Below are positions 2,692 to 43,247 of a DNA stretch of 64,000 bases, piece after piece (the first letter of the stretch is position 1; each line of letters starts with the position of its first letter). A program made the position numbers and the translations under genes. Source of the DNA: Thermoanaerobaculia bacterium (GTDB lineage Bacteria; Acidobacteriota; Thermoanaerobaculia; Multivoradales; UBA5704); contig JBDSHF010000028.1 in assembly GCA_039918595.1 (NCBI GenBank), positions 5,370-69,369 of the forward strand. The letters run 5' to 3'. The notes under the pieces were generated by a model. The model did not search any database. It was given only the letters and a program-made list of their open reading frames with translations, and was not told the origin of the DNA.

Positions 2692-2973
2692 ATGGCTGGG
2701 TTCCATGTCCGAAAGATCGCGGCCGCTCTGTCCCTCGCCCTTCTCCTTGGAGGCGTCCCCTGCCGAGGAGAGTCGCGAAGAAGTCGTCCGGGAACGACAC
2801 CTCGGCCGGGAGAGAGCATCCAAGAGGAAGTCTCGAGGATCTTCCGCCACGTGTTTGGAAGCATCTTCGAGAAGACCGGGAACACTCTCGACCCGAACGG
2901 AGGCACGCGGCCGACGGCTCCGCCAAGCGGGGCTTCCTCGGACACCGGCAACACGCTTGACCCGAACGGATAA
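2692..2973 (+). CDS. Small secreted protein with tandem GNTLDPNG repeats; the C-terminus ends LDPNG.
   Basis: N-terminal signal-peptide-like segment MAGFHVRKIAAALSLALLLGGVP. RBS gaagggag. Internal DNA repeat at 2876-2902 and 2944-2970. A hairpin plus T-tract terminator follows at ~2985-3015. Confidence 0.55.
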   Translation: MAGFHVRKIAAALSLALLLGGVPCRGESRRSRPGTTPRPGESIQEEVSRIFRHVFGSIFEKTGNTLDPNGGTRPTAPPSGASSDTGNTLDPNG

Positions 2974-3097: not shown

Positions 3098-4426
3098 GTG
3101 TCAAACATAGAGCACGAGCACCTGACGAGGGAGATGTTGGAGAGGTACTTCAGCACGACGCCAATTGAAGAAGTCAGCCACATGCTTCTGCATCTCCTCG
3201 CCGTCTGTCCCGAATGCCGGGAAGCGGGCGGGAGCATTCTTGCTGCCTACGAAGCGGGGGCGATCGGGATCCAGTTCTCCTCGGTCGATGTCGATCTCTT
3301 CGCGTCCAGAAGAGCCGCACGAGACCTTTGGGAGACTATCAAGCCGCTTTCCTCTGAGGACCAGCTCCGCCTGATCCGGACTGCTGACGAGTATGTAAGC
3401 TGGGGTCTTACTGAACTCCTATCGAGGGAGAGCAAGAAAGCGGGACCGCGGGACCCGTCCCGGGCGGTCGACCTCGCTTTGCTCGCCGTCGAGGTGGCAA
3501 AGCGCCTGGGCGAATGGCAGCCCTGCGAGAAGTACTGGCTCTATGAACTGCGCGCCTATGCCTTCGCCCACCTTGCGTCTGCGTACCGCATCTCGGGCAA
3601 CATGCGCGAAGCGGAGAAGGCCCAGAAGCGAGCCGACGGATGGTGGAAGGAAGGGGCGGCGAGCATGGGCGACATTCTGGGCTACGAGCCCGAGATCCTC
3701 TCCCTCAAGGCGTCTCTCCGGAAAGACCAGCGCCGCTTCGATGATGCGCTCGTGCTCCTGGACGAGGTTGTCGGGATCTACCTTGCCGGAGACCCCGAGA
3801 CCCAAGACCTGCACATGGCGGGGAGCACGTTCGTCCTCAAGGCGAAGACTTTCGAGGAAATGGGAAACCTCGAAGAGGCGCTTGCCTTCCTGCGAGAAGC
3901 TTCACCCTTGATTGACCCCGAGCGCGAGCCGCGACTCCTCCTCTGCGTGCAGCACAACCTCCTCGACTACCTCTCAAATCTTGGGCGCCCCGAGGACGCG
4001 AGAGCGATGCTTCCCAAGGTCTGGAAGCTCTCCCGGGAACTTGGAAACGAACTCGACATGGTCAGGCTTACCTGGACCGAGGGACTCATTCTAGCCGCGC
4101 TCAACGAGACTCTTCCGGCGGCAAAGCTTCTTCTCTCCGCCCGTGCCGAGTTCATCTCCCGAAACATGGGCTATGACGCTGCTCTCGTTTCTCTCAACCT
4201 TGCTCTCATCTACGCCAAAGAAGGCCGCGTCGCAGCGATCGCGGACCTCGCCCGGGAGATGGTCCCCATCTTCGACGCCCAGGATGTCCACCGCGAAGCG
4301 CTCGCCGCTCTCGCGGTCTTCCATCGAGCAGCGCTCCATGAGCACGCGACGGCCGAGCTCGTCGGGAAAGTCGCCCGCTATCTCGAAACGGCGAGAGGAA
4401 ATCCGGGGTTGAAGTTCGAGGAGTAG
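3098..4426 (+). CDS. ZAS-domain (HxxxCxxC) anti-sigma-like protein with a C-terminal TPR-like domain; island paralog of the chromosomal family at 37.4-43.2 kb.
   Basis: GTG start with RBS aaggaggg. N-terminal HLLAVCPECREAG ZAS motif. Conserved LIDPEREPRLLL...HN and the C-terminal IFDAQDVHREALAAL block are shared with the ORFs at 37440, 40508 and 41937. Confidence 0.8.
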   Translation: MSNIEHEHLTREMLERYFSTTPIEEVSHMLLHLLAVCPECREAGGSILAAYEAGAIGIQFSSVDVDLFASRRAARDLWETIKPLSSEDQLRLIRTADEYVSWGLTELLSRESKKAGPRDPSRAVDLALLAVEVAKRLGEWQPCEKYWLYELRAYAFAHLASAYRISGNMREAEKAQKRADGWWKEGAASMGDILGYEPEILSLKASLRKDQRRFDDALVLLDEVVGIYLAGDPETQDLHMAGSTFVLKAKTFEEMGNLEEALAFLREASPLIDPEREPRLLLCVQHNLLDYLSNLGRPEDARAMLPKVWKLSRELGNELDMVRLTWTEGLILAALNETLPAAKLLLSARAEFISRNMGYDAALVSLNLALIYAKEGRVAAIADLAREMVPIFDAQDVHREALAALAVFHRAALHEHATAELVGKVARYLETARGNPGLKFEE

Positions 4427-5650: not shown

Positions 5651-5655
5651 CCGCT

Positions 5656-6561: not shown

Positions 6562-7590
6562 GTGCGAGAATACGACGCACCAGGGGGCATAGTGACGAAG
6601 GACTCTGACGAGCTTCAAGACATCGATCTTCTCCTAGAGGAGAGCCGGGCGCATCGCTTCAGCGATCCCGAGAGGGTCGTCTATCTCGCCGAGCTAGCGC
6701 GTGCGGCAGCCGACCGGCTTCAAGTCTCCGTTCACGGGCGCGCCGCGGTGGCTGACACGCGGGCAAAGGTCTGGACGGAACTGGCAAACGCCTATCGCCT
6801 GTCAGACGAGCTTGATCGGGCTGAAGAAGCGCTCGGCCGGGCAGTGCGTCACTTCGAGGAAGGCAGCCGGCACCCCGATCTTCTCGCTCGTATCGTCGAC
6901 CGCTTCGCTACGCTCCTTTGCTACCGCCGCCGTTTCGATGAGGCCCTCGCCCTGCTTGATCGCCTCGCATCCTTCTACCTCGCGAGAGGAGATCGCCATC
7001 TCGCCGGCAGGACCCTCGTCACCCGTGGTCTCTATACAGAGAACGCGGGCGAAGCTCTGCGGGCAATCGAATTCACCCGCCGGGGCCTTGAGCTTATCGA
7101 CCCGGCCCGAGATCCCCACCTTCTCCTCGCGGGGGTGCATAACCTCCTCTGGTGTGCAAGCGCCCTCGGGCGGTACGCCCTGATCGAGCGCCTAGTGCCC
7201 CGGGTTCGCTTCCTCTACGGAGACGACCGGCTGAACGTACTTCGCCTTGAGTGGGTGGAGGCGCGGGCAGCCTTCGGACTCGGTAGAGGAGAGGAGGCGG
7301 AACGGCTTTATGAGAAGGTCCGGGCCGGCTTTGCCGATGCCGGGCTCATCTTTCCTACCAGCCTCGTCTCTCTAGAGCTGGCTCTTGTCTGGTTGTCACG
7401 GGGGCGGACAAGTGAGGTCGCCCTGCTTGCGGGCGAGCTTGCGACCGCCTTCCAGGGACTGAAAGTCGGACGGGAGGTCATCGTATCGCTCCTCCTCCTT
7501 CGGCGGGCAATAGAAGAGGGGCGTGCCCTTGACGAGCTGGAGGGTAGGATTCGGTCTCTCGCGATCTCGATCCGCTCTCTGGAACGGTAG
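6562..7590 (+). CDS. TPR-like domain protein; paralog of the ZAS-TPR family but lacking the N-terminal ZAS domain.
   Basis: LIDPARDPHLLLAGVHNLL and the C-terminal ...GREVIVSLLLLRRAIEEG block align to the ORFs at 3098, 37440 and 40508. GTG start with a weak RBS. Confidence 0.7.
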   Translation: MREYDAPGGIVTKDSDELQDIDLLLEESRAHRFSDPERVVYLAELARAAADRLQVSVHGRAAVADTRAKVWTELANAYRLSDELDRAEEALGRAVRHFEEGSRHPDLLARIVDRFATLLCYRRRFDEALALLDRLASFYLARGDRHLAGRTLVTRGLYTENAGEALRAIEFTRRGLELIDPARDPHLLLAGVHNLLWCASALGRYALIERLVPRVRFLYGDDRLNVLRLEWVEARAAFGLGRGEEAERLYEKVRAGFADAGLIFPTSLVSLELALVWLSRGRTSEVALLAGELATAFQGLKVGREVIVSLLLLRRAIEEGRALDELEGRIRSLAISIRSLER

Positions 7591-7594
7591 CGCC

Positions 7595-7984: not shown

Positions 7985-8248
7985 CGCGGCCTCATTCTAC
8001 TCCAGTGTCCGCGTCTGAAGCCCAAACTTATCCGTCTCGGGTCGCTGCATCGGCCATGAAGAGCCGGTATAGAAACTCGGGAACCTCGGCGGGAGATGGT
8101 CTTCGCACGTCCATGCTTGTTTCTTCCTTCAGACACTACGACGCGCCGGAGTTCACGGCTGTAGATTCCCTAAGTCGTTCTAGATGATCGACTTGTGAGA
8201 GATACCTGTGGGGGAGGATAGAAGTCGTCTCGATAGCATATCTTCCGC

Positions 8249-8671
8249 ATGGACATGTTCCGGAACACGGGCTTAGGTCTACGCATTCTCCGAGAGTGGC
8301 GGGGAAAGAGCATCAGGGCGCTTGCCGCCGAGGCGGGAATCGGAAAGAGCCAGCTCTCGAAGTATGAGAATGGGAGGGAGCTTCCCAAACTTGACTCCCT
8401 ACAAAAGATATTACGGGCGCTCTCTGTCGGTTCCGTCGATTTCTTCTCCCTGACTACGCTTCTCGACAGGAAGCTCGAAAGCCTCTCGAATCCGGAGAGG
8501 ACTGACGATCTTCTTACGCTTCAATCGTTCGGCCTATTTACCCCTGAGATCACGGCAGCCTTCGAGAAGATCATGAGCGCCGTCCTGGAGGCTCACCACC
8601 TGGTTGTTCGTGAACTCGCCTTGAAAGTCACAGAACTAAAGACCCGAACAGTGAGAGAGCCCCATGACTAA
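8249..8671 (+). CDS. XRE-family HTH transcriptional regulator.
   Basis: LRILREWRGKSIRALAAEAGIGKSQLSKYENGRELPKLDSLQKILRAL. Confidence 0.7.
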   Translation: MDMFRNTGLGLRILREWRGKSIRALAAEAGIGKSQLSKYENGRELPKLDSLQKILRALSVGSVDFFSLTTLLDRKLESLSNPERTDDLLTLQSFGLFTPEITAAFEKIMSAVLEAHHLVVRELALKVTELKTRTVREPHD

Positions 8672-22800: not shown

Positions 22801-24789
22801 GGCTTCTCAACAACGGTTTGGTTCGCTTGGGGAACCGATACGACGCTCGGAAATTCTACGCCTAGCCAGAACGTCGGCAGTGGTAATTCTTCAGTGAGCT
22901 TCGCGGCTACACTCAATAACCTTCAGTGCGGCACTACCTACTACTACCGTGCCAAGGGGCAGAACAGCGGCGGGCAGACATCCGGTGCGCTCTACAACGT
23001 AACAACTTCCCCTTGCAGCCAAATACCCGTTATAACGATAACGGCAAGCGATCCGACTGCGACTGAAAATCCCATGACTACGGGGGAGTTTCTCATCCAG
23101 CGAACAGGAGATCTTTCTAGTGCGTTATCGGTGGCATACACCGTGGGAGGAACCGCCATCGTTGGGGTAGATCACACGCTTGGAGGCGGGAGCGTGACCA
23201 TCCCCTCTGGATCAGCCTCGACTACTTTGACCGTCTTTCCGATCGACGATTCACTGGTCGAACCAGATGAGACCGTCGTTGTGACGCTTCAGCCGCAGTC
23301 CCAATATACAGTTGGTACCCCAAGCGGTGCCACTGTTACAATTACGAGTGATGATACGGGATGTGCCTTAAGTGTCATAAGGCCGCAAGGTGGAGAGGTG
23401 TGGACAAAAGGATCACCTCATACCGTTCAGTGGAGTGCGAACTCTGATTGCGTGGACTTTGCCTTTATTCTATACAGAAATGGTAACTTTGATGGCTACC
23501 TGACAGGTTCTCTGTCCGGGAGCCAATTTAGCTGGACACCTCCGGCGTGGCTCGTACCAAGTCCCGGGCTGCAGATTGATGTTGTAGGATTCAACGCTGA
23601 TGGCACTGGTGTTTCGGCGCGTTCAAACAACTTTACGCTTATCAACCCTGCGGTCCTTCCCGCAGTCATATTCCAGGACACTGTAGAGACTAACGATGAG
23701 TTCAACTACTACTCCGAAGGATGGGGAGTGACAAATTTCACCTCGCACAGCCCCACGCATTCGCGCGCGGATAGTCCTGCTTTCTACGGCAACAACACGA
23801 ACAGCTCACTTATAACACCTAAAATCGATGTTAGTAGCCGCACCTCCCTCTCTCTCAGCTTCTGGCATCGCTTTAGTCTTGCGGACTTCGACTTCGTGAA
23901 CGTCTGGGTTAAGACCGATCAAGGAGATTGGATCTTCTTGCAGGGCTTTACCGGAATCCAATCTGACTGGCGACAGGTCACAATTAACCTGAACGCTTTC
24001 CTTGGCCAACCGTCTGTTCAGGTCGCTTTTCAGATAGTATCTGATGATGCTCTGACTGCCGATGGCTGGTATATCGACGACATCGTATTGAGTGGGGCGA
24101 GTGACACTAATAAAATTTTCTCTAATGGTTTTGAGTCCGGTGATCTTTCGGCATGGTTGGTGGCGCCGCCGAGCGACGGAAGCATCGTTTCTGTTTTGGA
24201 GCAGGGTGTCCCAGGGCAACCCGGAAAGGATATTTGGACAACGAGCAACTATTCATTTGCGCCGGGCGGCAACACGCCGGGAGGTGGGTTGGACAACGAA
24301 GAGCTTGTAGTAGGAGGATGGGGCGACAATTACTACAGCCTCCTTGAGTTCAATCTCGCAGGGCTTCCAAGTCACGCATCCTCGGCAGTGCTCAAGCTCT
24401 TTTGCTACCGGACTCGTGCTACCGAAACGATTGGCATGTATGTCGAGCGTATAACCCAGATATGGGATTGGCGTACCCAAGGCACCGGCCGAGATAGGGA
24501 GAGGTTATGGTGGGCAGACCAACCGCAGTCACTCAATTGGATAGGCTTGCCGGTCACGAAGCCGACGGTAGGGCAGTGGTACTCAATCGACATCACGGAT
24601 CTCTATAACGCATGGCAGAACGGATCTGTGCCAAACTACGGCATCAAGCTCACACCGGTTGATAATGGTAACGAGTGGAGCGAGTTTTACAGCGCAAACT
24701 ACTCTGATCCGGCCTTCCGGCCTCGGCTCGTAATTCGGCCGGATCAATCTACCGTTAAACGTTCTCCTCTATCTAGGAAGCCACGGTAG
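19876..24789 (+). CDS. Giant secreted multidomain surface protein (1637 aa): signal peptide, three or more Fn3-like repeats, a Calx-beta domain, a Kre9/KNH-like Ser/Thr-rich domain, two MAM/ConA-like domains and a C-terminal DNRLRE-like domain.
   Basis: TTG start coupled to the upstream gene. Signal peptide MKYSAWALSVIVLILSGEGQAAA. Repeated VNPNG.DT..WF.WGT...TTYY(F/Y)RA units. Calx-beta segment ITASDPTATENPMTTGEFLIQRTG...DETVVVTLQP. Two ...(V/I)DD(V/I)VL motifs typical of MAM domains. C-terminal DNEELVVGGWGDNYYSLLEFNLAGLP. GC is lower than the host. Confidence 0.8.
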   Translation: MKYSAWALSVIVLILSGEGQAAAHDFGSIPYDDVVYAAQVYNQCRDTLPTDKLVAYMLAPTWRELTNGNTNLTPSPMTLGRGDNDLDLYPDGQSGATAPHRRAFWHPGIGLWQLDDIGLGKDISTEKFNSRDAAQVAATIISTRYCKSPTAAYIYGGIWIACGADGSLCQDIVNQLYNPNGPPAYTVGRDNSVGRYGGSQLHTCKLAGDTRYFDCLYVKPANPDGTRANAEGTISSWIYQPLEGLYPPNTPSPLTMPFYVYREDATGGGFEWRYWLAADTGFGKDYAARRTYGANSRAGLHWVSDASTSLALCDVTLTRGACGGIPQAPSISNIAQLSYDGSPLSVGAITQAGTVILRGTLAGSQGQQVRIELEVRRISDPFLGEPNYLGNYVTSGSVSKCVTGLQDAKYHWQARVRSDSGQFSQWLQFGGNSEASPDFEVQANRCAICTASGASAVVTKYGRIGISCGVPLAVELAASVNNGITLLNGVSLTASVSGSETGTINYTFYCNRPDGGIDVRSGWIAKYDGISANPKTAYDVCDYVGPGIYTAKVIAERGSSAAESRTLITVSAPSTQTPSVTTSGSANVTQSSATLSLSVNPNGSDTSAWFDWGTSTSFCCNTSQQTVAASSGASLLSMTVGALQCDTTYYFRAHAQSVGGEATGSTLSFRTGACGNGPQTVQLVPDPGFEQGNNAWWVASPAFYIDHAPTFPNPRNGSYYAFLSTSNGSAGNNLQGGVISPQVTIPSNASGAELRFWYSVSTQETSTSIFDTLKAYLVKPGNQATLFATISNLDNSGTTYREKVVGIPSSFFGGPVQIFFSGATDGSLPTVFRVDDVTLSAFIPATAGSPVVSTGSVDQITSSSGRLSMTVNPNGADTQVWFDIETNNPPNSETEHVAIGTGQQAEGVSISVFGLRCDTTYYYRADAVNSYGSQLGSVSSFRTSTCPVQAPSVSTTVADSITSTSARLVGSVNPNGFSTTVWFAWGTDTTLGNSTPSQNVGSGNSSVSFAATLNNLQCGTTYYYRAKGQNSGGQTSGALYNVTTSPCSQIPVITITASDPTATENPMTTGEFLIQRTGDLSSALSVAYTVGGTAIVGVDHTLGGGSVTIPSGSASTTLTVFPIDDSLVEPDETVVVTLQPQSQYTVGTPSGATVTITSDDTGCALSVIRPQGGEVWTKGSPHTVQWSANSDCVDFAFILYRNGNFDGYLTGSLSGSQFSWTPPAWLVPSPGLQIDVVGFNADGTGVSARSNNFTLINPAVLPAVIFQDTVETNDEFNYYSEGWGVTNFTSHSPTHSRADSPAFYGNNTNSSLITPKIDVSSRTSLSLSFWHRFSLADFDFVNVWVKTDQGDWIFLQGFTGIQSDWRQVTINLNAFLGQPSVQVAFQIVSDDALTADGWYIDDIVLSGASDTNKIFSNGFESGDLSAWLVAPPSDGSIVSVLEQGVPGQPGKDIWTTSNYSFAPGGNTPGGGLDNEELVVGGWGDNYYSLLEFNLAGLPSHASSAVLKLFCYRTRATETIGMYVERITQIWDWRTQGTGRDRERLWWADQPQSLNWIGLPVTKPTVGQWYSIDITDLYNAWQNGSVPNYGIKLTPVDNGNEWSEFYSANYSDPAFRPRLVIRPDQSTVKRSPLSRKPR

Positions 24790-25641: not shown

Positions 25642-28600
25642 ATGGCGAGCCGGGTTGAGGAGCGCACCCACCATTTCTTCCGGTGGGAACGGCGGGGCCG
25701 CGGACGGCGGAGCTTCCTGTCTCCCGTCTCGCTTGAGCCGCCCTTCACTCCCTTTTGGTTCGTGAAACATGCCGCGCCCGCCCTCGATGACGGCAGGCAT
25801 CACACCTTCTTGTCAGCCTTCCTCGAACGGTTCTCTGGTAAGCGGGAGGCGCCGCCACCTGAGCCCGAGATCGAAGAGCCGGAGGCGGAACCCGGAGACG
25901 AGGGGGAGCCTGTCGAGCTACGGGTCCTCCTGCCGCAGGAGCTTTCCGTCACGGCGGCGCTCTCCGAAGGCTTCCTCAAGAGCCTTGCGGCCGTCCATAC
26001 GCCGCTCTCGCTGGAACTGGTCGGCATAGGCGGAGAGGTGGCGGTTTCCCTCACCAGCCGCAGGACGGCGGTGCCGATCCTCTCCTCCCAACTGCGGGCC
26101 TTCTTCCCGGAGGTACGCCTGGAGGAGGAAGAAGATCTCCTCCTCACTGCCTGGGAGTCGGGAGTGGAGGGTGTCTTCGGCGCCGTCGAGCTTGGCCTGT
26201 CCCGCGAGTTCATGCTACCCCTCGGCCGTCCGCGAAACTTCACGCCCGATCCCTTGACCGCGATCGTGGGAGCGCTTGCGGAGACTGCGCCCGGCGAGGT
26301 TGTCATCGTCCAGGTGCTCTTTCAGGGAGTGCGGTCGCCGTGGGCGGAGAACATCGTGCGGTCGGTGACCACACCCTCCGGCGAGCCCTTCTTCGCTGAC
26401 GCTCCCGAGGTCACCAAGCTTGCCCGCGAGAAAGTATCCGCACCGCTCTTCGCCGTTGCCGTTCGCGTCGTGGCGCGGGGAGCAACCGAGGAGCGGCTGT
26501 GGACGCTTCTCTCGGGTAGCCTTGGCGCGCTCGTGGGCGCAACGAGAGGTGACAACGAACTTGTGCCGCTCGGGACGGATGACAGTACCGAGATCTTGGG
26601 AGACGTGCTCCTGCGCAGGACCCACCGGAGCGGCTTTCTCCTCTCGCTTCCCGAGCTGCTTCCCCTGGTTCACCTTCCGTCGCCCTCGATCCCCGGCATC
26701 GCCCGGGACACCGGCCGCACCAAGCTCCTCCCCGAGGAGGCACAGGAAGGCGGGCTCTTCCTCGGGTACAACGTCCATGCGGGAAGGGAGCGCGAGGCGC
26801 GGCTCTCGACGGACGCGCGCCTCCGCCACGTGCATGTCGTGGGGGCTTCGGGCACCGGCAAGTCAACGCTTCTGGTGTCCATGATCCTCCAGGACATTGC
26901 CGCCGGGCACGGCGTGGGCGTCATCGACCCGCACGGCGATCTCATCGACCACGTGCTCGGCGGGATTCCTGAAAACCGAGCGGCGGACGTAATCCTCTTT
27001 GACCCGGCCGACCCGGAGCATGTCGTCGGCTGGAACATACTCTCCGCGCACTCCGAAGCAGAGAAAGACATGCTCTCCTCGGACCTCGTTGCGGTCTTCC
27101 GCAGGCTTTCGACCTCCTGGGGCGACCAGATGACGGCGGTCCTTGCGGGCGCGATTCTCGCCTTCCTGGAGTCAGAGCGGGGCGGCACGCTCCTCGATCT
27201 GCGGCGGTTCCTCGTGGACCAGGGCTTCCGGCGGGAGTTTCTCGCCACCGTCCGCGACGAGTATGCCCGAGACTTCTGGACGAGAGAGTTTCCGGTGCTC
27301 AAGGGCTCGCCTCAGGCGTCGATCGTGACCCGGCTCGATACGCTTCTCCGGGGCAAGCTCGTGCGCGGGGTGGTGACGGCCAGAGACAAGCCCCTGGACT
27401 TCCGGGGAGTGGTGGACGACCGGCGGATCTTCCTGGCGAAGCTCTCGCAGGGTGCCATCGGCGAGGAGAACGCTGCGCTCCTGGGGTCGCTTCTCGTCTC
27501 GAAGATCCACCAAGTATGCCTTCTGCGGCAGGATCAGGCCGAGGGTTCGCGCCGGCCGTTCTTCCTCTACCTCGACGAGTTCCACAACCTCGCGACGCCC
27601 TCCATGGCGACGCTCTTCTCCGGGGCGCGCAAGTACCGCCTCGGGGTGACCGTCGCGCATCAGGATCTCTACCAGCTCCACGCCTCCGTTCCCGAAGTCG
27701 AACGGGCCGTCCTCGGGAACGCATACACCCGGATCTGCTTCCGCCTCGGCGACGAGGACGCCCGGACCTTATCTGCGGGCTTCTCCTTCTTCACGGCAGA
27801 CGACCTCGGGAACCTCGACACCGGAAGAGCGATCTGCCGGGTGGGCAGGAAGGAGCACGACTTCAACCTCTCCGTCGTGCCGATGGAGCATGGAGACCCT
27901 GAGGCGCATGAAGCGAGGCGCCGGGATGTCCGGGCGCGGTCGCTTGCGAGGTGGGGCGCGCCGCGCTCTGCGGAGCCGCCGGCGGCTCCCGCACCTCCCG
28001 AGAGGCCACGAGCGGAAGCACCGCCACGAGTCGAAGTGCCACTGGCGCAGCCGCAACCCAAACGAGAGACAGCCCCGCCGCCTTCGGCTCCGCCCCCTCT
28101 ACCCGCACAGGTGCAAGCTCCCGAGCCACCTCCGGTCGAACCGCGCCGCCCGGGCAAAGGCGGGCCGGAGCACACGTATCTCCAGGAACTCATCAAGCGG
28201 TGGGGAGAGGAGAAGGGCTTCCGGGCAGTGGTCGAGGAGCAGATTGCGGGCGGCAGGGAAAGCATAGACATCGCCCTCTACCGGGGCGACCTCAAGATCG
28301 CCTGCGAGGTCTCGGTCACGACGCCTCTTGAATATGAGGTCGGGAACGTGGAGAAGTGCCTTGCGGCCGGATTCGGGACGGTGGCGGTCGTGTCTCTCAA
28401 GAAGGCCCGACTCGCGAAGCTCGGAAAGCTCCTCGACGAAGCCATTCCTTCCGAGAGCCGGGCCAAGGTCCACCTATTCACGACGGAGGAGTTGCTCTCA
28501 TGGCTTGAGGGGCAGCCGGTCCACGAGGAGGTGAAAACTGTCAGGGGATGGAAGGTCAAGGTCAAGTACCGCGATCCGGGAGATGACCGCATGAAGCGCG

Positions 28601-28650
28601 TCGCCGAGATCCTGGCCCGGAGTACGAGCGGGCTAGAGAAGGATGGGTAG
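25642..28650 (+). CDS. Large FtsK/HerA/VirD4-like P-loop ATPase (1002 aa) with an N-terminal domain of unknown function, a Pro-rich linker and a C-terminal PD-(D/E)xK/Mrr-Hjc-like nuclease-fold domain.
   Basis: HVHVVGASGTGKSTLLVSMILQDIAAGHGVGVIDPHGD Walker A. FFLYLDEFHNLAT Walker B. RKYRLGVTVAHQDLYQL. Linker PPAAPAPPERPRAEAPP...PPPLPAQVQAPEPPPVEP. C-terminal GEEKGFRAVVEEQIAGGRESIDIALYRGDLKIACEVSVTT fits an E...D...E(V)S restriction-endonuclease-like core. Confidence 0.8.
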   Translation: MASRVEERTHHFFRWERRGRGRRSFLSPVSLEPPFTPFWFVKHAAPALDDGRHHTFLSAFLERFSGKREAPPPEPEIEEPEAEPGDEGEPVELRVLLPQELSVTAALSEGFLKSLAAVHTPLSLELVGIGGEVAVSLTSRRTAVPILSSQLRAFFPEVRLEEEEDLLLTAWESGVEGVFGAVELGLSREFMLPLGRPRNFTPDPLTAIVGALAETAPGEVVIVQVLFQGVRSPWAENIVRSVTTPSGEPFFADAPEVTKLAREKVSAPLFAVAVRVVARGATEERLWTLLSGSLGALVGATRGDNELVPLGTDDSTEILGDVLLRRTHRSGFLLSLPELLPLVHLPSPSIPGIARDTGRTKLLPEEAQEGGLFLGYNVHAGREREARLSTDARLRHVHVVGASGTGKSTLLVSMILQDIAAGHGVGVIDPHGDLIDHVLGGIPENRAADVILFDPADPEHVVGWNILSAHSEAEKDMLSSDLVAVFRRLSTSWGDQMTAVLAGAILAFLESERGGTLLDLRRFLVDQGFRREFLATVRDEYARDFWTREFPVLKGSPQASIVTRLDTLLRGKLVRGVVTARDKPLDFRGVVDDRRIFLAKLSQGAIGEENAALLGSLLVSKIHQVCLLRQDQAEGSRRPFFLYLDEFHNLATPSMATLFSGARKYRLGVTVAHQDLYQLHASVPEVERAVLGNAYTRICFRLGDEDARTLSAGFSFFTADDLGNLDTGRAICRVGRKEHDFNLSVVPMEHGDPEAHEARRRDVRARSLARWGAPRSAEPPAAPAPPERPRAEAPPRVEVPLAQPQPKRETAPPPSAPPPLPAQVQAPEPPPVEPRRPGKGGPEHTYLQELIKRWGEEKGFRAVVEEQIAGGRESIDIALYRGDLKIACEVSVTTPLEYEVGNVEKCLAAGFGTVAVVSLKKARLAKLGKLLDEAIPSESRAKVHLFTTEELLSWLEGQPVHEEVKTVRGWKVKVKYRDPGDDRMKRVAEILARSTSGLEKDG

Positions 28651-36780: not shown

Positions 36781-36895
36781 GCATCCTGATCGCCGTCCGG
36801 ATCGGGAGTCCTTTCCGGGACCCGATAGATTCCCGGTCCACTATGGACAGTGGGCGAACGGGGTGTTAGCCTAGCGGCTGTCGACGGCAAACAAC

Positions 36896-37447
36896 GTGGC
36901 TATGGCAACTCTTGACCATCCTGAACTGCGGGAATCGCTCAACATTCTGCTGAAGAGCTCCAGGCCACGCCTGGAGCGCGTTCTCAGGAACTTCGAGATT
37001 CCACCCGAAGACGCCGAGGACATTCTGCAGGATGCGCAACTGACTCTGCTCTACAAGTGGGACAAGATCCGCAGTCCCGAGAGCTGGTTGATCGGGACGG
37101 TCAAGAAGAAGTGCATCATGTACTGGCGCAAGCGCCGGGGGAGCCTCTGCGAGGCTGTGGATACGGCCATCCTCGACCTGCTCGCCGTCCCCCAGGCACC
37201 GGATCAGGAAAAGACCGAGCTGACGTACGACCTCAACCGGGTGATGTTGCGCCTGTCGACCCGCTGCCGCTCGCTGCTCAATTTGCGCTACGGTCTCGGC
37301 TACGGCCCGACCGAGGTCGCGGAGCAGATGGGCTACCGCACATCCAGCATCCGCAAGGTCACCAATCGCTGTCTCGCGGCTCTCACCCGGCAGCTCCTGG
37401 CGGTCGGGTTCGATCAGGAGCCGCAGGGGGAGCCCCACGATGAATAA
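36896..37447 (+). CDS. ECF-type RNA polymerase sigma factor (copy 1).
   Basis: Region 2 EDILQDAQLTLLYKW. Region 4 RCRSLLNLRYGLGYGPTEVAEQMGYRTSSIRKVTNRCLAAL. Confidence 0.85.
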   Translation: MAMATLDHPELRESLNILLKSSRPRLERVLRNFEIPPEDAEDILQDAQLTLLYKWDKIRSPESWLIGTVKKKCIMYWRKRRGSLCEAVDTAILDLLAVPQAPDQEKTELTYDLNRVMLRLSTRCRSLLNLRYGLGYGPTEVAEQMGYRTSSIRKVTNRCLAALTRQLLAVGFDQEPQGEPHDE

Positions 37448-38834
37448 GCACCCGCATCCGACGCTGCTCGCGCGGTTCGGCCGCGGCCGGCTGCAGCGCC
37501 ACCGGAACCGTGAGGTCGTACGGCACCTCCTCACCGACTGCGACGACTGCCGTCGCGTCACCTCCCATCTCCTTCCCACGGCTGATGTGTCGGCTCGCCT
37601 GGAGGAGGAGAGCGCTCCTCTGTCCGTCGACATGCCGGGCGCCGCCCAAGGTGATATGCCGGCGATCGAGTACGGCTCGGCCTTCGAGCGTTCCTGGCGC
37701 GAGGTCAAGCGGCTGCAGATCACCCTGGCGGCCGAGCGTTCGGAGGCTTTCGAGCTGATGCGCGAGCTGCTGACCCAGCCGTTCGAGCGCCAGTGGGAGA
37801 GCGTGACCGACGCCTCGCGGCAACCCACCTGGGCTTTTTGCGATCTGCTTCTGGATACCGCCCGGGAATGGGGCTTCCAGGAGCCGGGCCGGGCGCTGGA
37901 GCTGTCGCGGCTCGGCGTCGAGGTGGCGCAACGCCTCGATGGAGCGGCCTATGGCGAGTCGCGCGTCCACGACCTCGTCGCGCGCGCCTGGGCGGGCCTG
38001 GGCAACGCGCAGCGCATCCGGTCGGACTTTCCCGCAGCGGAGAAGAGCTTCGCCCGCGCCGAGCGGCTGCTCAAGAACGGCACCGGCGACCCGGTGGAGA
38101 AGGCCCAGGTGCTCCTGCTCAAGGCCTCGTTGCGCGGCAATCAGCAGCGCTTCCGCGAAGCCTTTCTGCTACTCGATCGGGTGATGTCGCTCGGCGACCA
38201 GTGCGACGATTCGCACCTGTGCGGCAAGGCGCTGATCATGCGCGGCTTCTTCCTCGGGCTCGCCAACGACCCGGAGGCCGCCATCCGTCATCTGACGGAA
38301 GGGCTGGAGAAGGTCGATCCCGCGGCCGATCCGCGCTTGGTGATCGTGGCTCAGCACAACCTGACCCTGTACCTGGCCGAGGGGGGCCGGTACTGCGAGG
38401 CCGTGCGGCTGCTCGAGAGCGCACGGCCGCTCTATTATCAGATCGGCGACCAGATGAGTCTCCTGCGCCTGCGCTGGCTGGAGGGGAAGATCGCCAGCGC
38501 CCTGGGGCACTTCACGGAAGCGGAGGAGTTCCTGCGCGGCGTGCAGAAAGAGCTGATCGAGCGCGAGCTCGGCTACGACGCCGCCCTGCTCTCCCTGGAT
38601 CTGGCCACCATCTACGCCCGCCAGGGACGGAGCGCCGAGATGCGGCGCCTGGCCGAGGAGATGCTCCCCATCTTCAAGTCGCAGGATATCCATCGGGAGG
38701 CCATCGCCGCGCTGTTCGTCTTCCAGAAGGCGGCGGAGATGGAGCGCGTCACCCTGGGGCTGATCCGGGACGTGACCGGCTATCTCAAAGAATCCCGCGC
38801 CACCTGGAGCCTCCGCTCCAGGGAATCCCGCTGA
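37440..38834 (+). CDS. ZAS (HxxxCxxC)-TPR anti-sigma-like protein (copy 1); overlaps the sigma gene by 8 nt.
   Basis: N-terminal RHLLTDCDDCRRV. KVDPAADPRLVIVAQHN. C-terminal PIFKSQDIHREAIAALFVF. Confidence 0.85.
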   Translation: MNKHPHPTLLARFGRGRLQRHRNREVVRHLLTDCDDCRRVTSHLLPTADVSARLEEESAPLSVDMPGAAQGDMPAIEYGSAFERSWREVKRLQITLAAERSEAFELMRELLTQPFERQWESVTDASRQPTWAFCDLLLDTAREWGFQEPGRALELSRLGVEVAQRLDGAAYGESRVHDLVARAWAGLGNAQRIRSDFPAAEKSFARAERLLKNGTGDPVEKAQVLLLKASLRGNQQRFREAFLLLDRVMSLGDQCDDSHLCGKALIMRGFFLGLANDPEAAIRHLTEGLEKVDPAADPRLVIVAQHNLTLYLAEGGRYCEAVRLLESARPLYYQIGDQMSLLRLRWLEGKIASALGHFTEAEEFLRGVQKELIERELGYDAALLSLDLATIYARQGRSAEMRRLAEEMLPIFKSQDIHREAIAALFVFQKAAEMERVTLGLIRDVTGYLKESRATWSLRSRESR

Positions 38835-38950
38835 GATCCTCTTCCTTCGCTCGGGAGGCGCGGAGCCTCCCCTCATCGATCTTCTCCCGCCGCTGGACAA
38901 GCTGTGGAAGGGGCTGATACGCTGAGATATTCGGTACACTTAGGCACTAG

Positions 38951-39478
38951 ATGAATTCTTCGGTCCCACCCGATCTGGCGGAGCCTTCCTTCGAGGAGAT
39001 CCTCGCGCGGGCCGAGCCCAGGCTCAAGCGGGTCTTGAGCCGCTATCAAATTCCCGCCCAGGACGCCGACGACCTGCTGCAGGAGACCTTCCTGATCATG
39101 GTCTCCAAAGCGGGGAGCATCCGGAACTACGATGCCTGGCTCGTGGGGACCCTCGCTAATCGCTGCATCATCTACTGGCGGAAGCACCGTTCGAAGCTCT
39201 GGGACCTGGTCGACTCCGCCATTCTCGAGCTGCTGGCCGACGTCGAGGCTCCCCCCCAGGAGAACGCCGATCTGCGGTATGACCTCGACTCCCTGCTTTC
39301 CAACTTGCCGGACCGTTGCCGCTCCCTGCTCCGCCTTCGCTATGGATTCGGCTGCAGCACTGCCGAGACGGCGGAGCGGATGGGCTATTGCAAGTCGAGC
39401 ATCCGGAAGGTGACCCGCCGCTGCCTGGCGGCGTTGACCGAGCAGCTCCTCGGGGCCGGCTTCCAGCCCGATCCCTGA
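38951..39478 (+). CDS. ECF-type sigma factor (copy 2); no cognate ZAS-TPR gene follows.
   Basis: DDLLQETFLIMVSK and RCRSLLRLRYGFGCSTAETAERMGYCKSSIRKVTRRCLAAL. Followed by a hairpin terminator at 39500-39545. Confidence 0.85.
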   Translation: MNSSVPPDLAEPSFEEILARAEPRLKRVLSRYQIPAQDADDLLQETFLIMVSKAGSIRNYDAWLVGTLANRCIIYWRKHRSKLWDLVDSAILELLADVEAPPQENADLRYDLDSLLSNLPDRCRSLLRLRYGFGCSTAETAERMGYCKSSIRKVTRRCLAALTEQLLGAGFQPDP

Positions 39479-39499
39479 CCCCCGATCCCCTCAGCCGGT

Positions 39500-39545
39500 C
39501 CCTCCGGATGCCGTGCGGCATCCGGAGGGAACCCGTTCTTCTTCT
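39500..39545 (+). terminator. Hairpin ccctccggatgc/gcatccggaggg plus a T-rich tail after ECF sigma 2.
   Basis: 12-bp perfect stem with a 4-6 nt loop, followed by ttcttcttctcc. Confidence 0.5.
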
Positions 39546-39644
39546 CCTGTGTCCTCTGAGACGACCCTGCGGTAACTCTACTTCAGAGCGCACACATGCC
39601 TATGGCTATTCGGCCACACAGGCGATTAGGAAAAGGAGATCGTC

Positions 39645-39866
39645 ATGGTTCATCCGAAGCTTCGCCACGTCCTCGCCGCCTCGGCACTGGTAGCTGCCGT
39701 TTCGCTGGTCCCGGTCGCCAGCGCCAATGCCGCCGTCCACGAACGGGCGCACCGGATCTCCGCCGCCGCTTCCCGGGTCGAGGCCGGGGCTTCGTGGCTG
39801 CGGGATCTGGTGAACCATGTCCTGGTGAAGGTCGGAGTGAGGATCGACCCCGACGGAGATCACTGA
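39645..39866 (+). CDS. Small secreted protein (73 aa; mature ~44 aa) ending RIDPDGDH.
   Basis: RBS aaaaggag. Signal peptide ...LVPVASANA-AV (AXA cleavage). The C-terminal (I/L)DP(N/D)G motif is shared with the island ORFs at 2692 and 6233. Confidence 0.5.
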   Translation: MVHPKLRHVLAASALVAAVSLVPVASANAAVHERAHRISAAASRVEAGASWLRDLVNHVLVKVGVRIDPDGDH

Positions 39867-39980
39867 CGCCCACGGCGAGGTACGGCAAAAACGCGCGGCG
39901 GGAAGGGTTTTTGGCTGGACACTGTTCCGGTATGGTGTTAGTGTGTCACGAAGTTTAGAATAGACGTTCAACCGCATAAG

Positions 39981-40511
39981 ATGAGTGCACTGGACCACCC
40001 CCAAGTCGAGTCGTCGCTTGAGGGCTTTCTCGAGAAGGTCCGGCCCCGTCTGAAGTCGCTGTTCGCCCACTACCGGATCCCGCCACAGGACACGGAGGAC
40101 ATTTTGCAGCAGGCGCTGCTGGCCCTGATCTATCACCGCGAGGGGATCCGGGACTCGGAAGCGTGGCTGCTGGGAACCCTCCGCAACAAGTGTCTCCTGT
40201 ACTGGCGGGAGCGGCGGCGCAAGCTCTATGACGCCGTCGACGCCGCGGTTCTCGAGGCGATGGCCGAGCCGATCGAGCCCGCCCAGGAGGGGGCGGACCT
40301 CCATCGGGATCTGACCACCGCTCTCGAGCACCTGCCGGAGCGCTGCCGGTCGTTGCTCTGGCTGCGGTACCGCCAGGGGTACGATCCGCCGGAGGTTGCG
40401 GTGCGGCTGGGCTACAGCCCGGCGAGCATCAGCAAGGTCACCACGAGGTGCCTCGCCGCGCTGACGCGGCAGCTGGTCACCGCTGGGATCTACCGGAGGA
40501 AAGCGGAATGA
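39981..40511 (+). CDS. ECF-type sigma factor (copy 3).
   Basis: EDILQQALLALIYH and RCRSLLWLRYRQGYDPPEVAVRLGYSPASISKVTTRCLAAL. Confidence 0.85.
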   Translation: MSALDHPQVESSLEGFLEKVRPRLKSLFAHYRIPPQDTEDILQQALLALIYHREGIRDSEAWLLGTLRNKCLLYWRERRRKLYDAVDAAVLEAMAEPIEPAQEGADLHRDLTTALEHLPERCRSLLWLRYRQGYDPPEVAVRLGYSPASISKVTTRCLAALTRQLVTAGIYRRKAE

Positions 40512-41887
40512 CCGGCCCTCATCCGACAGCCGGCGCGCTCGAGCAGTTCGTGCTCGGGCAGCTCGCCCCGGCGGAGATGCGCGAGGTCGCCCGTCACCTG
40601 CTCACCGGCTGCCTGTTCTGCCAGGAGATCACCGCCAACCTCTGGGAGCCCGCCGATATCTTCGAGGACCCGCAGACGCTCGCCACGGTTGAGCTCGGGG
40701 CCATGGACGCCCGGGACAGCTACGACGCGATCCTCGACCGGGTTTTCGAGAAGGTCGTCGCCACCGAGTCCCTGCTTGCGGAGCAGCGATCGCTGGGGCG
40801 CAAGCTCTACGAGGAGCTGCTGCAGTGTCCGGCGGAGCGCCGGCAGTTGCTGCTGGTCAACAGCCAGCGCTTCCGCAACCGGATGCTCTGCGAGCGGCTC
40901 GTCGAGAGCAGCTACGAGGCCTGCTTCGAGGAACCCCGCCGCGCGATCGAGATGGCCCAGCTGGCGGTTTCGTCCGCGGACCGTCTGACCGTGGAGGATT
41001 GCGGTGGGGAAGAGGCGCTCGCCGGGCTGCGAGCCCGGGCCTGGGCCCATCTCGGCAACGCTTTCCGGACCAACTTCGACCTCGCGAGCTCCGAGGGCGC
41101 GTTCGCGGTCGTCGAGACCCTGCTCGACGAGAGCCGCATCACCCTGTTCGAGAAGGCGAAGGTGCTCTCCTTTCTGGCCTCCTGGCGAAAGGCGCAGCAG
41201 CGGTTCGGCGAGGCCCTCCAGATCTTCGACCGCGTCGCCGCGATCTACAAGAAGCTTGGGCAGTGGAACCTCCTCGGCCGTACGCTCCTCCAGAAGGCGC
41301 TGGTCTGCGGCGAAGCGGGCGACGGCGAGGGGGAAATGACGCTGCTGCGGCGGGCCCTCGATCTGATCGATCCGCAGGCCGATCCCCGCGTCTTCCTGGC
41401 CGCCCGTCACAACCTGATCAACGCCCTCTATGAGAGCGGCCGGGTGCGCGAGGCGTTCGCCTTGCTGTACCACACGCGCCCTCTCTACCTGAAGGCTGGC
41501 GACCGCATGAACCTGCTGAAGCTCCGCTGGCTCGAGGGGCTGGTGGCTTTCGGCCTGCACCGTATCGAGCAGGCCGAGGCGGCGTTCCGCGAGGTCCGCG
41601 ATTCTTTTCTCGAGCTCGGCCTCGACTATGACGCCGCGCTGGCCTCCCTCGACCTTGCCGGCGTGTACATCGTGCAGGGGCGCTCCGCCGACGTGAGCCG
41701 CGTCGCCGAGGAGACCCTGGCGATCTTCCACTCCTATAACACCCACCGCGAGGCGATGGCGGCGCTCCTGGTCTTCTGCGGCACCGCCCGCTTGAATCAG
41801 GCGCGCATCGAGCTCGTCCGCGAGGTCTCCAGTTTTCTCAAACGGGTGCGCAACAACCCGGATCTCCGCTTCCCTCAGCCTTCCTGA
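40508..41887 (+). CDS. ZAS-TPR anti-sigma-like protein (copy 3); its ATG overlaps the sigma stop (ATGA).
   Basis: ARHLLTGCLFCQEI. LIDPQADPRVFLAARHN. C-terminal AIFHSYNTHREAMAALLVF. Start trimmed from the 40448 ORF. Confidence 0.85.
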   Translation: MTGPHPTAGALEQFVLGQLAPAEMREVARHLLTGCLFCQEITANLWEPADIFEDPQTLATVELGAMDARDSYDAILDRVFEKVVATESLLAEQRSLGRKLYEELLQCPAERRQLLLVNSQRFRNRMLCERLVESSYEACFEEPRRAIEMAQLAVSSADRLTVEDCGGEEALAGLRARAWAHLGNAFRTNFDLASSEGAFAVVETLLDESRITLFEKAKVLSFLASWRKAQQRFGEALQIFDRVAAIYKKLGQWNLLGRTLLQKALVCGEAGDGEGEMTLLRRALDLIDPQADPRVFLAARHNLINALYESGRVREAFALLYHTRPLYLKAGDRMNLLKLRWLEGLVAFGLHRIEQAEAAFREVRDSFLELGLDYDAALASLDLAGVYIVQGRSADVSRVAEETLAIFHSYNTHREAMAALLVFCGTARLNQARIELVREVSSFLKRVRNNPDLRFPQPS

Positions 41888-41936
41888 GCTGCCCGTCCGG
41901 CAGCGCGTGTCGTTTTGTTGCGGCCGTTCTGCTAAA

Positions 41937-43247
41937 ATGTTGTCAGTGCATAATTCTGACGAGCACTCACGATTTCTGCGGGGTGAGCTGAACACCGGAG
42001 AGAACCGCCGGGTCGTTCGCCATTTGCTGGCCCGGCGGGGGAGCCGGCAGCCGCCCTCGGGCGCATGCTCGGCGGCGGCCGATTACAGCCAGGCGTTCGG
42101 CGGCCTCGTCTCCCATCTGGCGGATCACACCCGGACGCTCGCGCGCGAGCGACAGCGTCTCCCCGGGTTGATTGAACTCCTGCGCGACCTGCCGCCCTCC
42201 GCTTGGCACGACCTTTTAGGCTCCGATCCGTCGTTCCACAACTGGCCGTTCGGCGAGTGGCTGATCGAGGAGAGCCGTAATCTCGCCGACTCCGATCCGG
42301 GCCGCGCCGGAGAGCTGGCGACCGACGCCCTGCTGATCATGGAGGCGCTGATCCCCGGAACCTATGGGACCGCTCTCATCGAAGACTTCAAGGCACGGGC
42401 GTGGGCGGCCAGGGGCGAGGCGCTACGGCGGCTCTCCGACTTGCGCGGGGCCGAGGATGCATTCGCCAGCGCCGAAGAGTGCCTCCTCGAGGGGACGGAA
42501 GATCCCCTGGAAGAGGCTCGGATTCTCGAGCTCAAGGCGGCGCTATATCGCGATCAGCGGCGGGTGGAGAAGGCGCATCTCCTGCTCGACGACGTCATCG
42601 CCATCTACCGGCAGTACCGCGATCCCCATCTCCTGGGCCGGGCTTTCATTCAGAAGGGGCGTGTCGAGGGAAAAGTGAACGCCCTGGAGCCGGCGATCCG
42701 GTGGCTGCGCAAGGGGCTCGGACTGATCGATCCGGCGCGCGAGCGGTCCCTCGACCTCTCGGCCCGGCACAGCCTCATGCTCTACCTGAACGAGAGCGGC
42801 CGCCCCCGGGAGGCCCGCTTCCTGCTCAAGGCTTCGGGACTCGATTTCCTGCGGCACGGCAACCCCCTGCTGAACCTCCGGCTCCGCTGGCTCGAAGGCA
42901 AGATCTACGACTCCCTCGGCTTCCTGGGAGAAGCGGAGAAGGCGCTGATCGACGCCCGCCAGGGGTTCGCCGACCTCGGGGTCGGCTTCAGCGCCGCCGC
43001 CGTCTCCCTGGACCTCGCCGGCCTCTACGCGGTCCATGGACGCGCCGCGGAGCTGAGGAGCCTTGCCGAAGAGATGCTGCCGATCTTCCAGTCGCGCGAC
43101 CTTCAGCAGGAGACGATCGCCGCCCTCCTGGCGTTCCAGCAGGCGGCGCGGATGGAGAGGATGATTGAGACGAAGATAAACGCCGAGATCCTGGCCTGTC
43201 TCGACCGCGCCCGCCAGGATCCGAAGCTTCGCCTCGAGCCCCTCTGA
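41937..43247 (+). CDS. Orphan ZAS-TPR paralog with a degenerate ZAS motif (Cys ligands lost).
   Basis: NRRVVRHLLARRGSRQP aligns to NREVVRHLLTDCDDCRRV, with C replaced by R/G/S. The LIDPARERSLDLSARHS and C-terminal blocks are conserved. No sigma gene precedes it. Confidence 0.8.
   Translation: MLSVHNSDEHSRFLRGELNTGENRRVVRHLLARRGSRQPPSGACSAAADYSQAFGGLVSHLADHTRTLARERQRLPGLIELLRDLPPSAWHDLLGSDPSFHNWPFGEWLIEESRNLADSDPGRAGELATDALLIMEALIPGTYGTALIEDFKARAWAARGEALRRLSDLRGAEDAFASAEECLLEGTEDPLEEARILELKAALYRDQRRVEKAHLLLDDVIAIYRQYRDPHLLGRAFIQKGRVEGKVNALEPAIRWLRKGLGLIDPARERSLDLSARHSLMLYLNESGRPREARFLLKASGLDFLRHGNPLLNLRLRWLEGKIYDSLGFLGEAEKALIDARQGFADLGVGFSAAAVSLDLAGLYAVHGRAAELRSLAEEMLPIFQSRDLQQETIAALLAFQQAARMERMIETKINAEILACLDRARQDPKLRLEPL

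Follow-up and report, generated by a model that had tools for sequence, protein, structure and literature searches.

Three related extracytoplasmic function (ECF) sigma factor genes stand head-to-tail at one chromosomal locus of a Thermoanaerobaculia bacterium, within a 64,000-nt stretch of contig JBDSHF010000028.1 (hereafter the window), and the question they raise is what controls their products. Pairs of an ECF sigma factor and its anti-sigma factor are one of the main signalling devices of bacteria; to our knowledge only a few anti-sigma factors are soluble, and the signal to which most of these respond is not known. Thermoanaerobaculia are a poorly studied soil lineage, mostly known from metagenome-assembled genomes (MAGs). 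Alongside the sigma factors the locus encodes proteins that join an anti-sigma domain (ASD) to a tetratricopeptide repeat (TPR) array, and a small protein with a predicted secretion signal. The system is of the ECF sigma/anti-sigma kind, and what makes it more interesting is that peptide precursor, sigma factor and ASD-TPR protein recur as a triad, which suggests an undescribed signalling route from peptide to sigma factor. The explanation that best covers the locus as a whole is a conserved three-sigma locus in which a peptide ligand gates soluble anti-sigma factors, a reading we hold to be probable, if only just. By position within the window, and with the evidence from which each was called in brackets where it was recorded, the features of the main locus are as follows.

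36896..37447, forward strand: ECF sigma 1, 183 aa (open reading frame (ORF) list, domain models)
37440..38834, forward strand: ASD-TPR protein 1 (TPR1), 464 aa, motif HLLTDCDDC (ORF list, alignment, AlphaFold2 model)
38951..39478, forward strand: ECF sigma 2, 175 aa, without an adjoining anti-sigma gene (ORF list, domain models)
39493..39537, forward strand: terminator-like element, a GC-rich hairpin with a U-rich stretch 3' of it (RNA folding)
39645..39866, forward strand: small secreted pro-peptide-like protein, 73 aa, C-terminal GVRIDPDGDH
39981..40511, forward strand: ECF sigma 3, 176 aa (ORF list, domain models)
40508..41887, forward strand: ASD-TPR protein 3 (TPR3), 459 aa, motif HLLTGCLFC
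41889..41916, forward strand: short hairpin and T-run between TPR3 and TPR4, terminator-like
41937..43247, forward strand: ASD-TPR protein 4 (TPR4), 436 aa, zinc-ligand-free paralog, RHLLARRGSR

A sequence-only reading of this stretch had described three related ECF sigma genes at 36896, 38951 and 39981, the first and third overlapping the TPR genes that follow them. Both observations are borne out, as ORFs and domain matches agree on the three genes and the overlaps, confirmed on the sequence, measure 8 nt for sigma 1 and TPR1 (ATGAATAA) and 4 nt for sigma 3 and TPR3 (ATGA). All three sigma factors match Sigma70_r2 and r4/r4_2, consist of only the σ2 and σ4 domains within 175–183 aa, in line with the two domains and ~170–200 aa that define ECF (group 4) sigma factors, and pass the TIGR02937 sigma70-ECF model with 58–67 bits against a cutoff of 42.9. 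They share 50–52% pairwise identity, with region 2 and region 4 residues mostly invariant, and a tblastn search of the 64-kb window returned no sigma paralog beyond these three, but two additional TPR paralogs in its low-GC part (3098–4426 and 6562–7590). The hairpin 3' of sigma 2 (13 bp, −35.1 kcal/mol, z −5.07, none of 200 shuffles as stable) escapes a simple terminator scan on account of its interrupted T-run but is clear on folding; together with the signal-like N-terminus of the ORF at 39645, it upholds the described order of sigma 2, terminator and small secreted protein. For TPR1 there is an NCBI entry of 100% identity, named just 'hypothetical protein ABIS20_01350'. Three cysteines are kept in all three sigma orthogroups (KC(I/L)xYWR, RCRSLL and RCLAALT; 92–100% of 61–80 species) and could belong to a metal or redox site of the sigma factor itself or to the anti-sigma interface.

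With the highly conserved sigma 1 as anchor, 80 loci from different species were fetched, 55 of them complete from sigma 1 to lptFG. The small ORF has a GGAG ribosome-binding site and encodes a Sec-type signal-like N-terminus and a helix of the pattern W..L...L.(E)K.G. Its consensus begins M....LRR..A..AL.AA..LLP...A.AA, followed directly by PR, and runs on to W..L..L.EK.G.RIDPNG. The C-terminal motif, which across the pairs described below reads x-x-(I/L/M)-D-(P/G/D)-(D/N)-G, takes the form G-x-(R/Q)-(I/M)-D-(P/G/D)-(D/N)-G at the main locus, usually at the extreme C-terminus, and in several species it is present in two to three tandem copies (for example three of KLGVRIDDNG or three of AGIQIDGNG). 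The ORF stands upstream of sigma 3 in at least 48 of 74 loci, those lacking sigma 2 included. Among complete loci and ignoring phylogeny, it is found only where TPR3 exists (38/38 against 0/4 loci without TPR3), and its presence also correlates with TPR4. The family comprises 205 database clusters, none of which is named or carries a Pfam domain. A six-frame scan of 1.33 Mb for a signal-like N-terminus together with the C-terminal motif found 55 ORFs, 52 of them at most 400 nt upstream of a sigma or TPR gene of the family, against 0–1 in scrambled-motif controls of the same scan; its yield within the window was two true ORFs and one probable false positive. A conserved non-coding block lies 5' of the ORF:

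39567..39625, forward strand: CTGCGGTAAC, then the inverted repeat GTGGC-TATTC-GCCAC (consensus)

This block is distinct from the TGGACA-N15-GTTA motif found before the sigma genes and could be a second type of promoter or an operator.

The association is not confined to the main locus. Small ORFs of this kind stand directly upstream of sigma-ASD-TPR genes or of orphan ASD-TPR genes at no fewer than nine independent paralogous loci, one of them in a low-GC island at the start of the window, where the small ORF lies 124 nt upstream of the orphan gene. A metagenome scan with the orphan island protein (TPR5) returned two further loci, L088 and L089. The island genes and the peptide-TPR pairs outside the window are listed below.

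2692..2973, forward strand: island ORF resembling a pro-peptide, 93 aa, with a signal peptide; TGNTLDPNG occurs twice, the second copy ending the protein
3098..4426, forward strand: island orphan ASD-TPR protein 5 (TPR5), 442 aa, HLLAVCPEC, no sigma gene nearby
6562..7590, forward strand: island TPR paralog 6, 342 aa, truncated and without anti-sigma domain (tblastn)
L088: 95% ortholog of TPR5, orphan, same small ORF kept
L089: TPR5-like, 48% identity, small ORF divergently oriented
L086: three copies of EGSIIDPDG, with an orphan ASD-TPR
L087: ...SLEPDG, with an orphan ASD-TPR
L094: ...GPGIDPDGSP, with an orphan ASD-TPR
L090: three copies of DAGPFIDPNG, with a sigma-ASD-TPR pair at a different chromosomal site
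L091: GPKMDPNG, with a sigma-ASD-TPR pair
L092: ...VVVPDG, with a truncated sigma-ASD-TPR pair

Pro-peptide and putative receptor genes are direct neighbours in the orphan pairs (2692–2973/3098–4426, L086, L087 and L094), and a sigma gene intervenes in the main locus, L090 and L091. The presence of the same kind of ORF beside independently diverged members of the family is the decisive observation, since it argues for a functional link to the TPR proteins, and on this genomic evidence the small, predicted secreted protein is a conserved partner of theirs. The cassettes of L090 (1646–3880) and L091 (1620–3892) constitute a second, independent arrangement of small ORF, ECF sigma and ASD-TPR beside rpsP-rimM-trmD in other Thermoanaerobaculia, and one of their precursors consists of almost nothing but a signal peptide and three exact DAGPFIDPNG(RTQQ) repeats. 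At L092:2053–2331, between the small ORF and the ASD-TPR gene P0145, a 92-aa ORF corresponds to the region-2 half of an ECF sigma factor; this remnant may show how orphan peptide-TPR pairs originate, by loss of the sigma gene from sigma-linked cassettes. The peptide motif closes invariantly with Asn-Gly or Asp-Gly after Asp-Pro. Spontaneous deamidation, isoaspartate formation and acid cleavage occur most readily at Asn-Gly, Asp-Gly and Asp-Pro. One orphan pair has two protein-L-isoaspartate methyltransferase genes in its vicinity (L087:8292–9784), which may be coincidence.

The N-terminal domain of the TPR proteins had been read as carrying the HxxxCxxC motif of zinc-associated anti-sigma (ZAS) domains, a spacing that has to be corrected. 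The window copies read H-x4-C-x2-C (HLLTDCDDC, HLLTGCLFC and HLLAVCPEC), with one residue more than the ZAS consensus, and depart from the canonical H-x3-C-x2-C of zf-HC2 (PF13490). At E ≤ 1e-30 a profile built from the five window paralogs retrieved 3,647 representatives of clusters formed at 50% identity. Among the best 150 of these, 88 carry H-x4-C-x2-C, 30 the canonical H-x3-C-x2-C and 3 both spacings, 1 has CxxC without the preceding His and 28 lack the motif; in the same 150 a conserved 'HP' His lies ~25 residues upstream of the cysteine motif. When a profile of 61 N-termini was compared with anti-sigma domains of solved structure, it matched DdvA (E 2.9e-7), ChrR (1.6e-6), RslA (5.3e-6) and, weakly, RsiW, the alignment to ChrR starting at residue 1 and taking in the first His ligand. 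The zf-HC2 model matches 36 of the 61 family members (best E 4.8e-8), although window TPR3 alone scores 14.4 bits, under the Pfam cutoff of 22.2. Given the matches to DdvA, ChrR, RslA and zf-HC2, the domain is assigned to the ZAS family with a one-residue insertion in its zinc motif. For a ZAS-family domain translationally coupled to a sigma gene, sequestration of that sigma factor would be the standard expectation.

TPR4 departs further from the canonical domain. It had been described as lacking both a sigma gene of its own and the zinc ligands, and this holds (RHLLARRGSR, no CxxC). Its orthogroup, taken down to 52% identity, counts at least 120 clusters in the database; H-x3/4-C-x2-C is absent from 119 of 120, and the surrounding helices are kept (HPDP.E..RFLRGEL..GENRRIVR.LL..WR.CR). 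When profiles of the N-termini are aligned (hhalign probability 98.2%, E 3e-14), TPR4 and the ZAS-bearing proteins stay in register, which disposes of the possibility that this N-terminus does not correspond to the ZAS region at all. Because the motif is missing from nearly the whole orthogroup and the helices remain, loss of the ligands appears ancestral and stable and not a matter of decay. The sequence-only reading had offered this copy as a possible redox-insensitive decoy or anti-anti-sigma factor; the data favour TPR4 being an old zinc-independent, anti-sigma-like paralog, which may serve sigma 2. The sequence-only reading had not recognised the ASD-TPR architecture as a characterised class, and we agree: no soluble anti-sigma class combining an ASD with TPRs was found among Pfam and NCBIfam families, solved structures or the literature searched, and no search placed the proteins in an already characterised anti-sigma family. 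Even without the peptide link, the H-x4-C-x2-C variant and a whole zinc-ligand-free orthogroup are new for the ZAS family.

The remainder of each TPR protein matches generic TPR models only (TPR_12), with 31–40% mutual identity. The proteins lack a transmembrane-like segment, as had been stated, their maximal Kyte-Doolittle 19-residue means being 0.9–1.5 against 2.16 for the signal peptide of the small ORF. A C-terminal block said to be common to all copies is kept in four, with QQE for HRE in TPR4, and is degenerate in the paralog at 6562–7590. An AlphaFold2 model of TPR1 built with 109 homologs (predicted local distance difference test score, pLDDT, 88.7; predicted template-modelling score, pTM, 0.79) shows three short helices at residues 7–41, a disordered linker at 45–78, a long helix at 80–112 and a TPR superhelix at 131–457. 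As modelled, the C-terminus resembles a peptide-receptor TPR solenoid, with the RRNPPA peptide-pheromone receptors of Gram-positive bacteria among its closest matches in fold, TPR folds being generic, and a whole-TPR profile searched against PDB sequences gave generic TPR matches only. Three longer members of the same TPR family (P0143, P0177 and P0181, >1000 aa) carry an XRE-type helix-turn-helix (HTH_3/HTH_31) and no anti-sigma domain, and so present an RRNPPA-like combination of HTH and TPR within this family.

Alignment of upstream regions across species gave one consensus before all three sigma genes, TGGACA-N14/15-(G/T)G(T/G/A)TA, represented in the window by the following promoter-like motifs.

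36844..36868, forward strand: TGGACA-N15-GTTA, 5' of sigma 1, ≥90% conserved in 81 aligned upstream regions
38893..38919, forward strand: CTGGACA-N15-TGATA, 5' of sigma 2
39915..39940, forward strand: CTGGACA-N15-GTTA, 5' of sigma 3

Within the 64-kb window the consensus occurs at the three sigma genes only, against ~0.1 matches expected in the window. The strict motif has 119 matches in the 80 loci (~1.3 Mb, both strands), 114 of them no farther than 120 nt from the start of a sigma gene downstream; four of the five left over stand before sigma 2. A looser match with longer spacing in the island (CTGGACA-N17-TGGTA, 1591–1619) is probably due to chance. From its position the motif appears to be an ECF-type, autoregulated promoter of each sigma gene with conserved −35 and −10 elements, and the shared consensus makes auto- and cross-activation among the three sigma factors probable. 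Cross-recognition would give sigma 2, which has no coupled partner, a plausible role as a feed-forward element or amplifier.

All 80 loci lie between metK and lptFG-queD-parBA. Across these species sigma 1 is 80–99% identical and TPR1 46–95%, so TPR1 is far less conserved than the sigma factor. The complete loci fall into six architectures (s, sigma; T, TPR).

s1-T1-s2-s3-T3-T4: 20 loci
s1-T1-s2-s3-T3: 12 loci
s1-s2-s3-T3-T4: 7 loci
s1-T1-s3-T3: 6 loci
s1-s2-s3-T3: 6 loci
s1-T1-s2-s3: 4 loci

Sigma 2 is never coupled to an anti-sigma gene and is unpartnered in every locus examined. Taken on gene order and content, this is an old, modular and conserved chromosomal regulatory locus of Thermoanaerobaculia. 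Among distant representatives of the TPR protein family almost none carry names, and Thermoanaerobaculia is the sole taxon appearing.

Building on the gene structure, homologies, fold, promoter motif and gene associations observed here, we infer sequestration, peptide binding and a direction of regulation as follows. The N-terminal three-helix ASD of TPR1 and TPR3 would sequester the coupled sigma factor, and a disordered linker of ~35 residues would join it to the ~330-residue TPR superhelix acting as sensor. The most likely ligand of this solenoid would be the conserved peptide near the C-terminal end of its cognate small protein, x-x-(I/L/M)-D-(P/G/D)-(D/N)-G, and for the island TPR5 the cognate variant would be the one encoded just upstream. 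The peptide might be exported, processed and taken up again, which is the route of RRNPPA quorum sensing, or it might reach the sensor as a precursor that is not exported. Its binding would change how tightly the sigma factor is held, and freed sigma factor would drive the shared promoters, that of sigma 2 included. Control of sigma 2 itself could be transcriptional through the shared promoter, exerted in trans by a TPR protein, or both. By analogy, the ASD-TPR proteins could be counterparts of RRNPPA peptide receptors in a diderm phylum, with an anti-sigma output and with the small proteins as cognate pro-peptides whose signals, of core x-x-(I/L/M)-D-P-(D/N)-G and often in several copies within one precursor, gate release of the ECF sigma factors; this more specific form is possible but doubtful. 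If true, peptide-based cell-cell or secretion-state signalling would be wired directly to sigma factor availability, in many paralogous copies per genome, one of them also on a conjugative element.

Several results weigh against peptide gating. The organism is diderm, as the adjoining lptFG indicates, so an exported peptide would need re-import, and no peptide transporter lies within the locus. The signal peptide of the small ORF is a prediction from the n/h/c-region pattern and the AxA site only. Neither TPR1 nor TPR4 has a small ORF of its own, 13 loci with sigma 3 and TPR3 have no room for one, and in the main locus sigma 3 stands between the small ORF and TPR3. The co-occurrence figures for the small ORF, TPR3 and TPR4 ignore phylogeny. 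A mutual-information (MI) test of the G/D variant of the peptide motif against TPR columns is underpowered and confounded by phylogeny, since the control proteins LptFG and MetK also reach MI = 1. In a mirror-tree analysis with partial correlations controlling for LptFG divergence, TPR1 ranked top for sigma 1 (0.59), and the values for sigma 2 and sigma 3 differed between data sets. In fold comparison APC5, MalT domain III, LGN and APPBP2 score equal to RRNPPA receptors, and no sequence match to any RRNPPA receptor was found in Pfam, NCBIfam or PDB sequences. H-x4-C-x2-C is a putative and unusual zinc site, at which zinc binding is a prediction only.

One alternative is an anti-sigma factor indifferent to peptides, either a classical zinc/thiol sensor like RsrA or one in which the TPRs bind another cytoplasmic protein or a metabolite, with the small protein as regulon output or mere neighbour. 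Its appeal lies in the ZAS-type domain with His/Cys ligands, in the breadth of partners that TPR folds bind, in the TPR proteins and loci that do without a small ORF, and in the conserved block upstream of the small ORF, which is unlike the sigma promoters. It has difficulty with the recurrence of the small ORF at nine or more diverged paralogs, including sigma-less orphans where 'regulon output' has no obvious basis, and with the 52 of 55 motif ORFs that adjoin family genes. The variable peptide residues change between pairs in the manner of cognate ligands and receptors, and the TPR4 orthogroup lost its zinc ligands but kept the rest of the protein, a loss throughout an orthogroup that speaks against thiol chemistry being the essential signal. 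We regard it as unlikely. The TPR proteins might instead be positive co-factors or adaptors for sigma activity, like the TPR-containing C-terminal extension of ECF42; TPR extensions fused to ECF42 sigma factors are a known regulatory mode (PMC7826278), and orphans that lack a sigma gene are numerous in the family. Homology of the N-terminal domain to inhibitory domains with solved sigma complexes (ChrR, RslA and DdvA), and translational coupling to the sigma gene, which is typical of anti-sigma factors, make this quite improbable.

Two further proposals concern the copies at the locus. TPR4 could be the dedicated, zinc-independent anti-sigma factor of sigma 2, acting in trans and completing three pairs. 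It occurs only in loci with sigma 2 (27/49 against 0/6, Fisher p 0.023, ignoring phylogeny), TPR genes never outnumber sigma genes in the six architectures of the 55 complete loci, and the helices of the anti-sigma domain are kept in its N-terminus. Yet 22 loci have sigma 2 without TPR4, the two genes are neither adjoining nor coupled, and at 0.26 (common set, 0.14) their mirror-tree partial correlation does not exceed that of other pairs. We hold this pairing to be possible but doubtful. The sequence-only reading had spoken of a tandem triplication, and the head-to-tail order of the paralogs does invite the idea of a recent duplication with decaying copies, in which TPR4 is pseudogene-like and sigma 2 has just lost its partner. 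As a recent event this fails: the identities are just 50% among sigma factors and 31–40% among TPR proteins, every paralog is ancient and has its own orthologs in the same order across the 80 species, and the ORFs of the TPR4 orthogroup, with its 120 or more clusters, are intact and full-length. With old orthogroups, conserved order and intact TPR4 ORFs, recent duplication and pseudogene decay were rejected as extremely improbable.

Among characterised systems, ChrR of Rhodobacter sphaeroides sigmaE (PDB 2q1z, 2z2s) is similarly soluble and cytoplasmic, with an N-terminal ZAS-type domain, a C-terminal sensor and a gene adjoining that of its own ECF sigma factor. Its sensor is, however, a cupin responding to singlet oxygen, whereas the window proteins carry an all-helical TPR array, most ASD-TPR members have H-x4-C-x2-C, and a gene for a small secreted protein accompanies the ASD-TPR modules. 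DdvA, of the DdvA/DdvS pair of Myxococcus xanthus (PDB 8rlz, 8rot), combines a ZAS-type domain with TPRs and gave the best N-terminal profile match, but it is a transmembrane protein with a periplasmic TPR-CHAT module of ~900 residues and is released by RseP proteolysis (PMC11506125). The window proteins have neither a transmembrane segment nor a CHAT domain, which places their TPRs in the cytoplasm. In ECF42 (PMC7826278) TPR repeats likewise control an ECF sigma factor in the cytoplasm, though fused to the sigma factor and with no anti-sigma factor, where here the TPRs are fused to a separate anti-sigma domain. RsrA and RslA share the His/Cys zinc-site anti-sigma domain; RsrA is a redox sensor of one domain and RslA is anchored in the membrane, while the window copies are off the canonical H-x3-C-x2-C spacing and one ASD-TPR orthogroup has no ligands at all.

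The resemblance to RRNPPA systems (Rap-Phr, NprR-NprX, PlcR-PapR and AimR-AimP) lies in gene arrangement, as predicted from the genes: a cytoplasmic TPR receptor of 250–500 aa beside a small Sec-exported pro-peptide, a conserved motif at the C-terminal end of the pro-peptide, tandem duplications of that motif and one copy on a mobile element. The published RRNPP signature is a small (10–100 aa) Sec-exported pro-peptide adjoining a TPR receptor of 250–500 aa (PMC10075063), and tandem pheromone duplications within pro-peptides are described for phage Rap-Phr systems (PMC11343458). The ASD-TPR proteins fall within the receptor size range; the small ORFs encode 35–111 aa, and their Sec signal is a pattern-based prediction. 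Judged by gene content, the orphan pairs fit this signature and the sigma-linked cassettes fit it save for the intervening sigma gene. In contrast to RRNPPA systems, there is no detectable sequence homology, the effector is an anti-sigma domain and not an HTH or a phosphatase-type helix bundle, the host is a diderm member of the Acidobacteriota, and in sigma-linked cassettes the sigma gene stands between pro-peptide and receptor. RRNPPA systems are described only for Bacillota (Gram-positive) and their mobile elements, and the literature searched held no peptide-gated or soluble TPR anti-sigma factor.

What the genes establish is a large family (the 3,647 clusters) combining a ZAS-type domain with a predicted cytoplasmic TPR sensor, systematically accompanied by a small, predicted secreted protein with a conserved and in many cases repeated C-terminal peptide, and with it a concrete handle on regulation in Thermoanaerobaculia. 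Should the peptide be the ligand, this would be the first case of a genetically encoded peptide gating an anti-sigma factor and the first RRNPPA-like peptide-receptor logic outside Gram-positives, and the modular triad of sigma factor, anti-sigma factor and peptide, with its orthogonal variants, could be useful for synthetic circuits.

The island that holds the TPR5 pair (window 1–28650) has a low GC content (0.51–0.62) and looks like an integrative conjugative or mobilisable element carrying its own pro-peptide-like ORF and orphan ASD-TPR gene. RRNPPA systems are often borne on mobile elements. Other genes of the island are listed here.

5261–8671: XRE-type HTH gene cluster
10977–11804, reverse strand: ArdC-like gene
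12710–14326, reverse strand: large serine recombinase
17676–18890 and 25642–28650, forward strand: two TraG/TrwB-type coupling proteins
19876–24789: MAM/Calx-beta protein, 1637 aa

In several long-read MAGs among the loci compared (L002/L030:11138–12524, L023, L034 and L050), TPR3, TPR1, metK or lptFG is split by frameshifts, which are more likely to be assembly errors than real pseudogenes.

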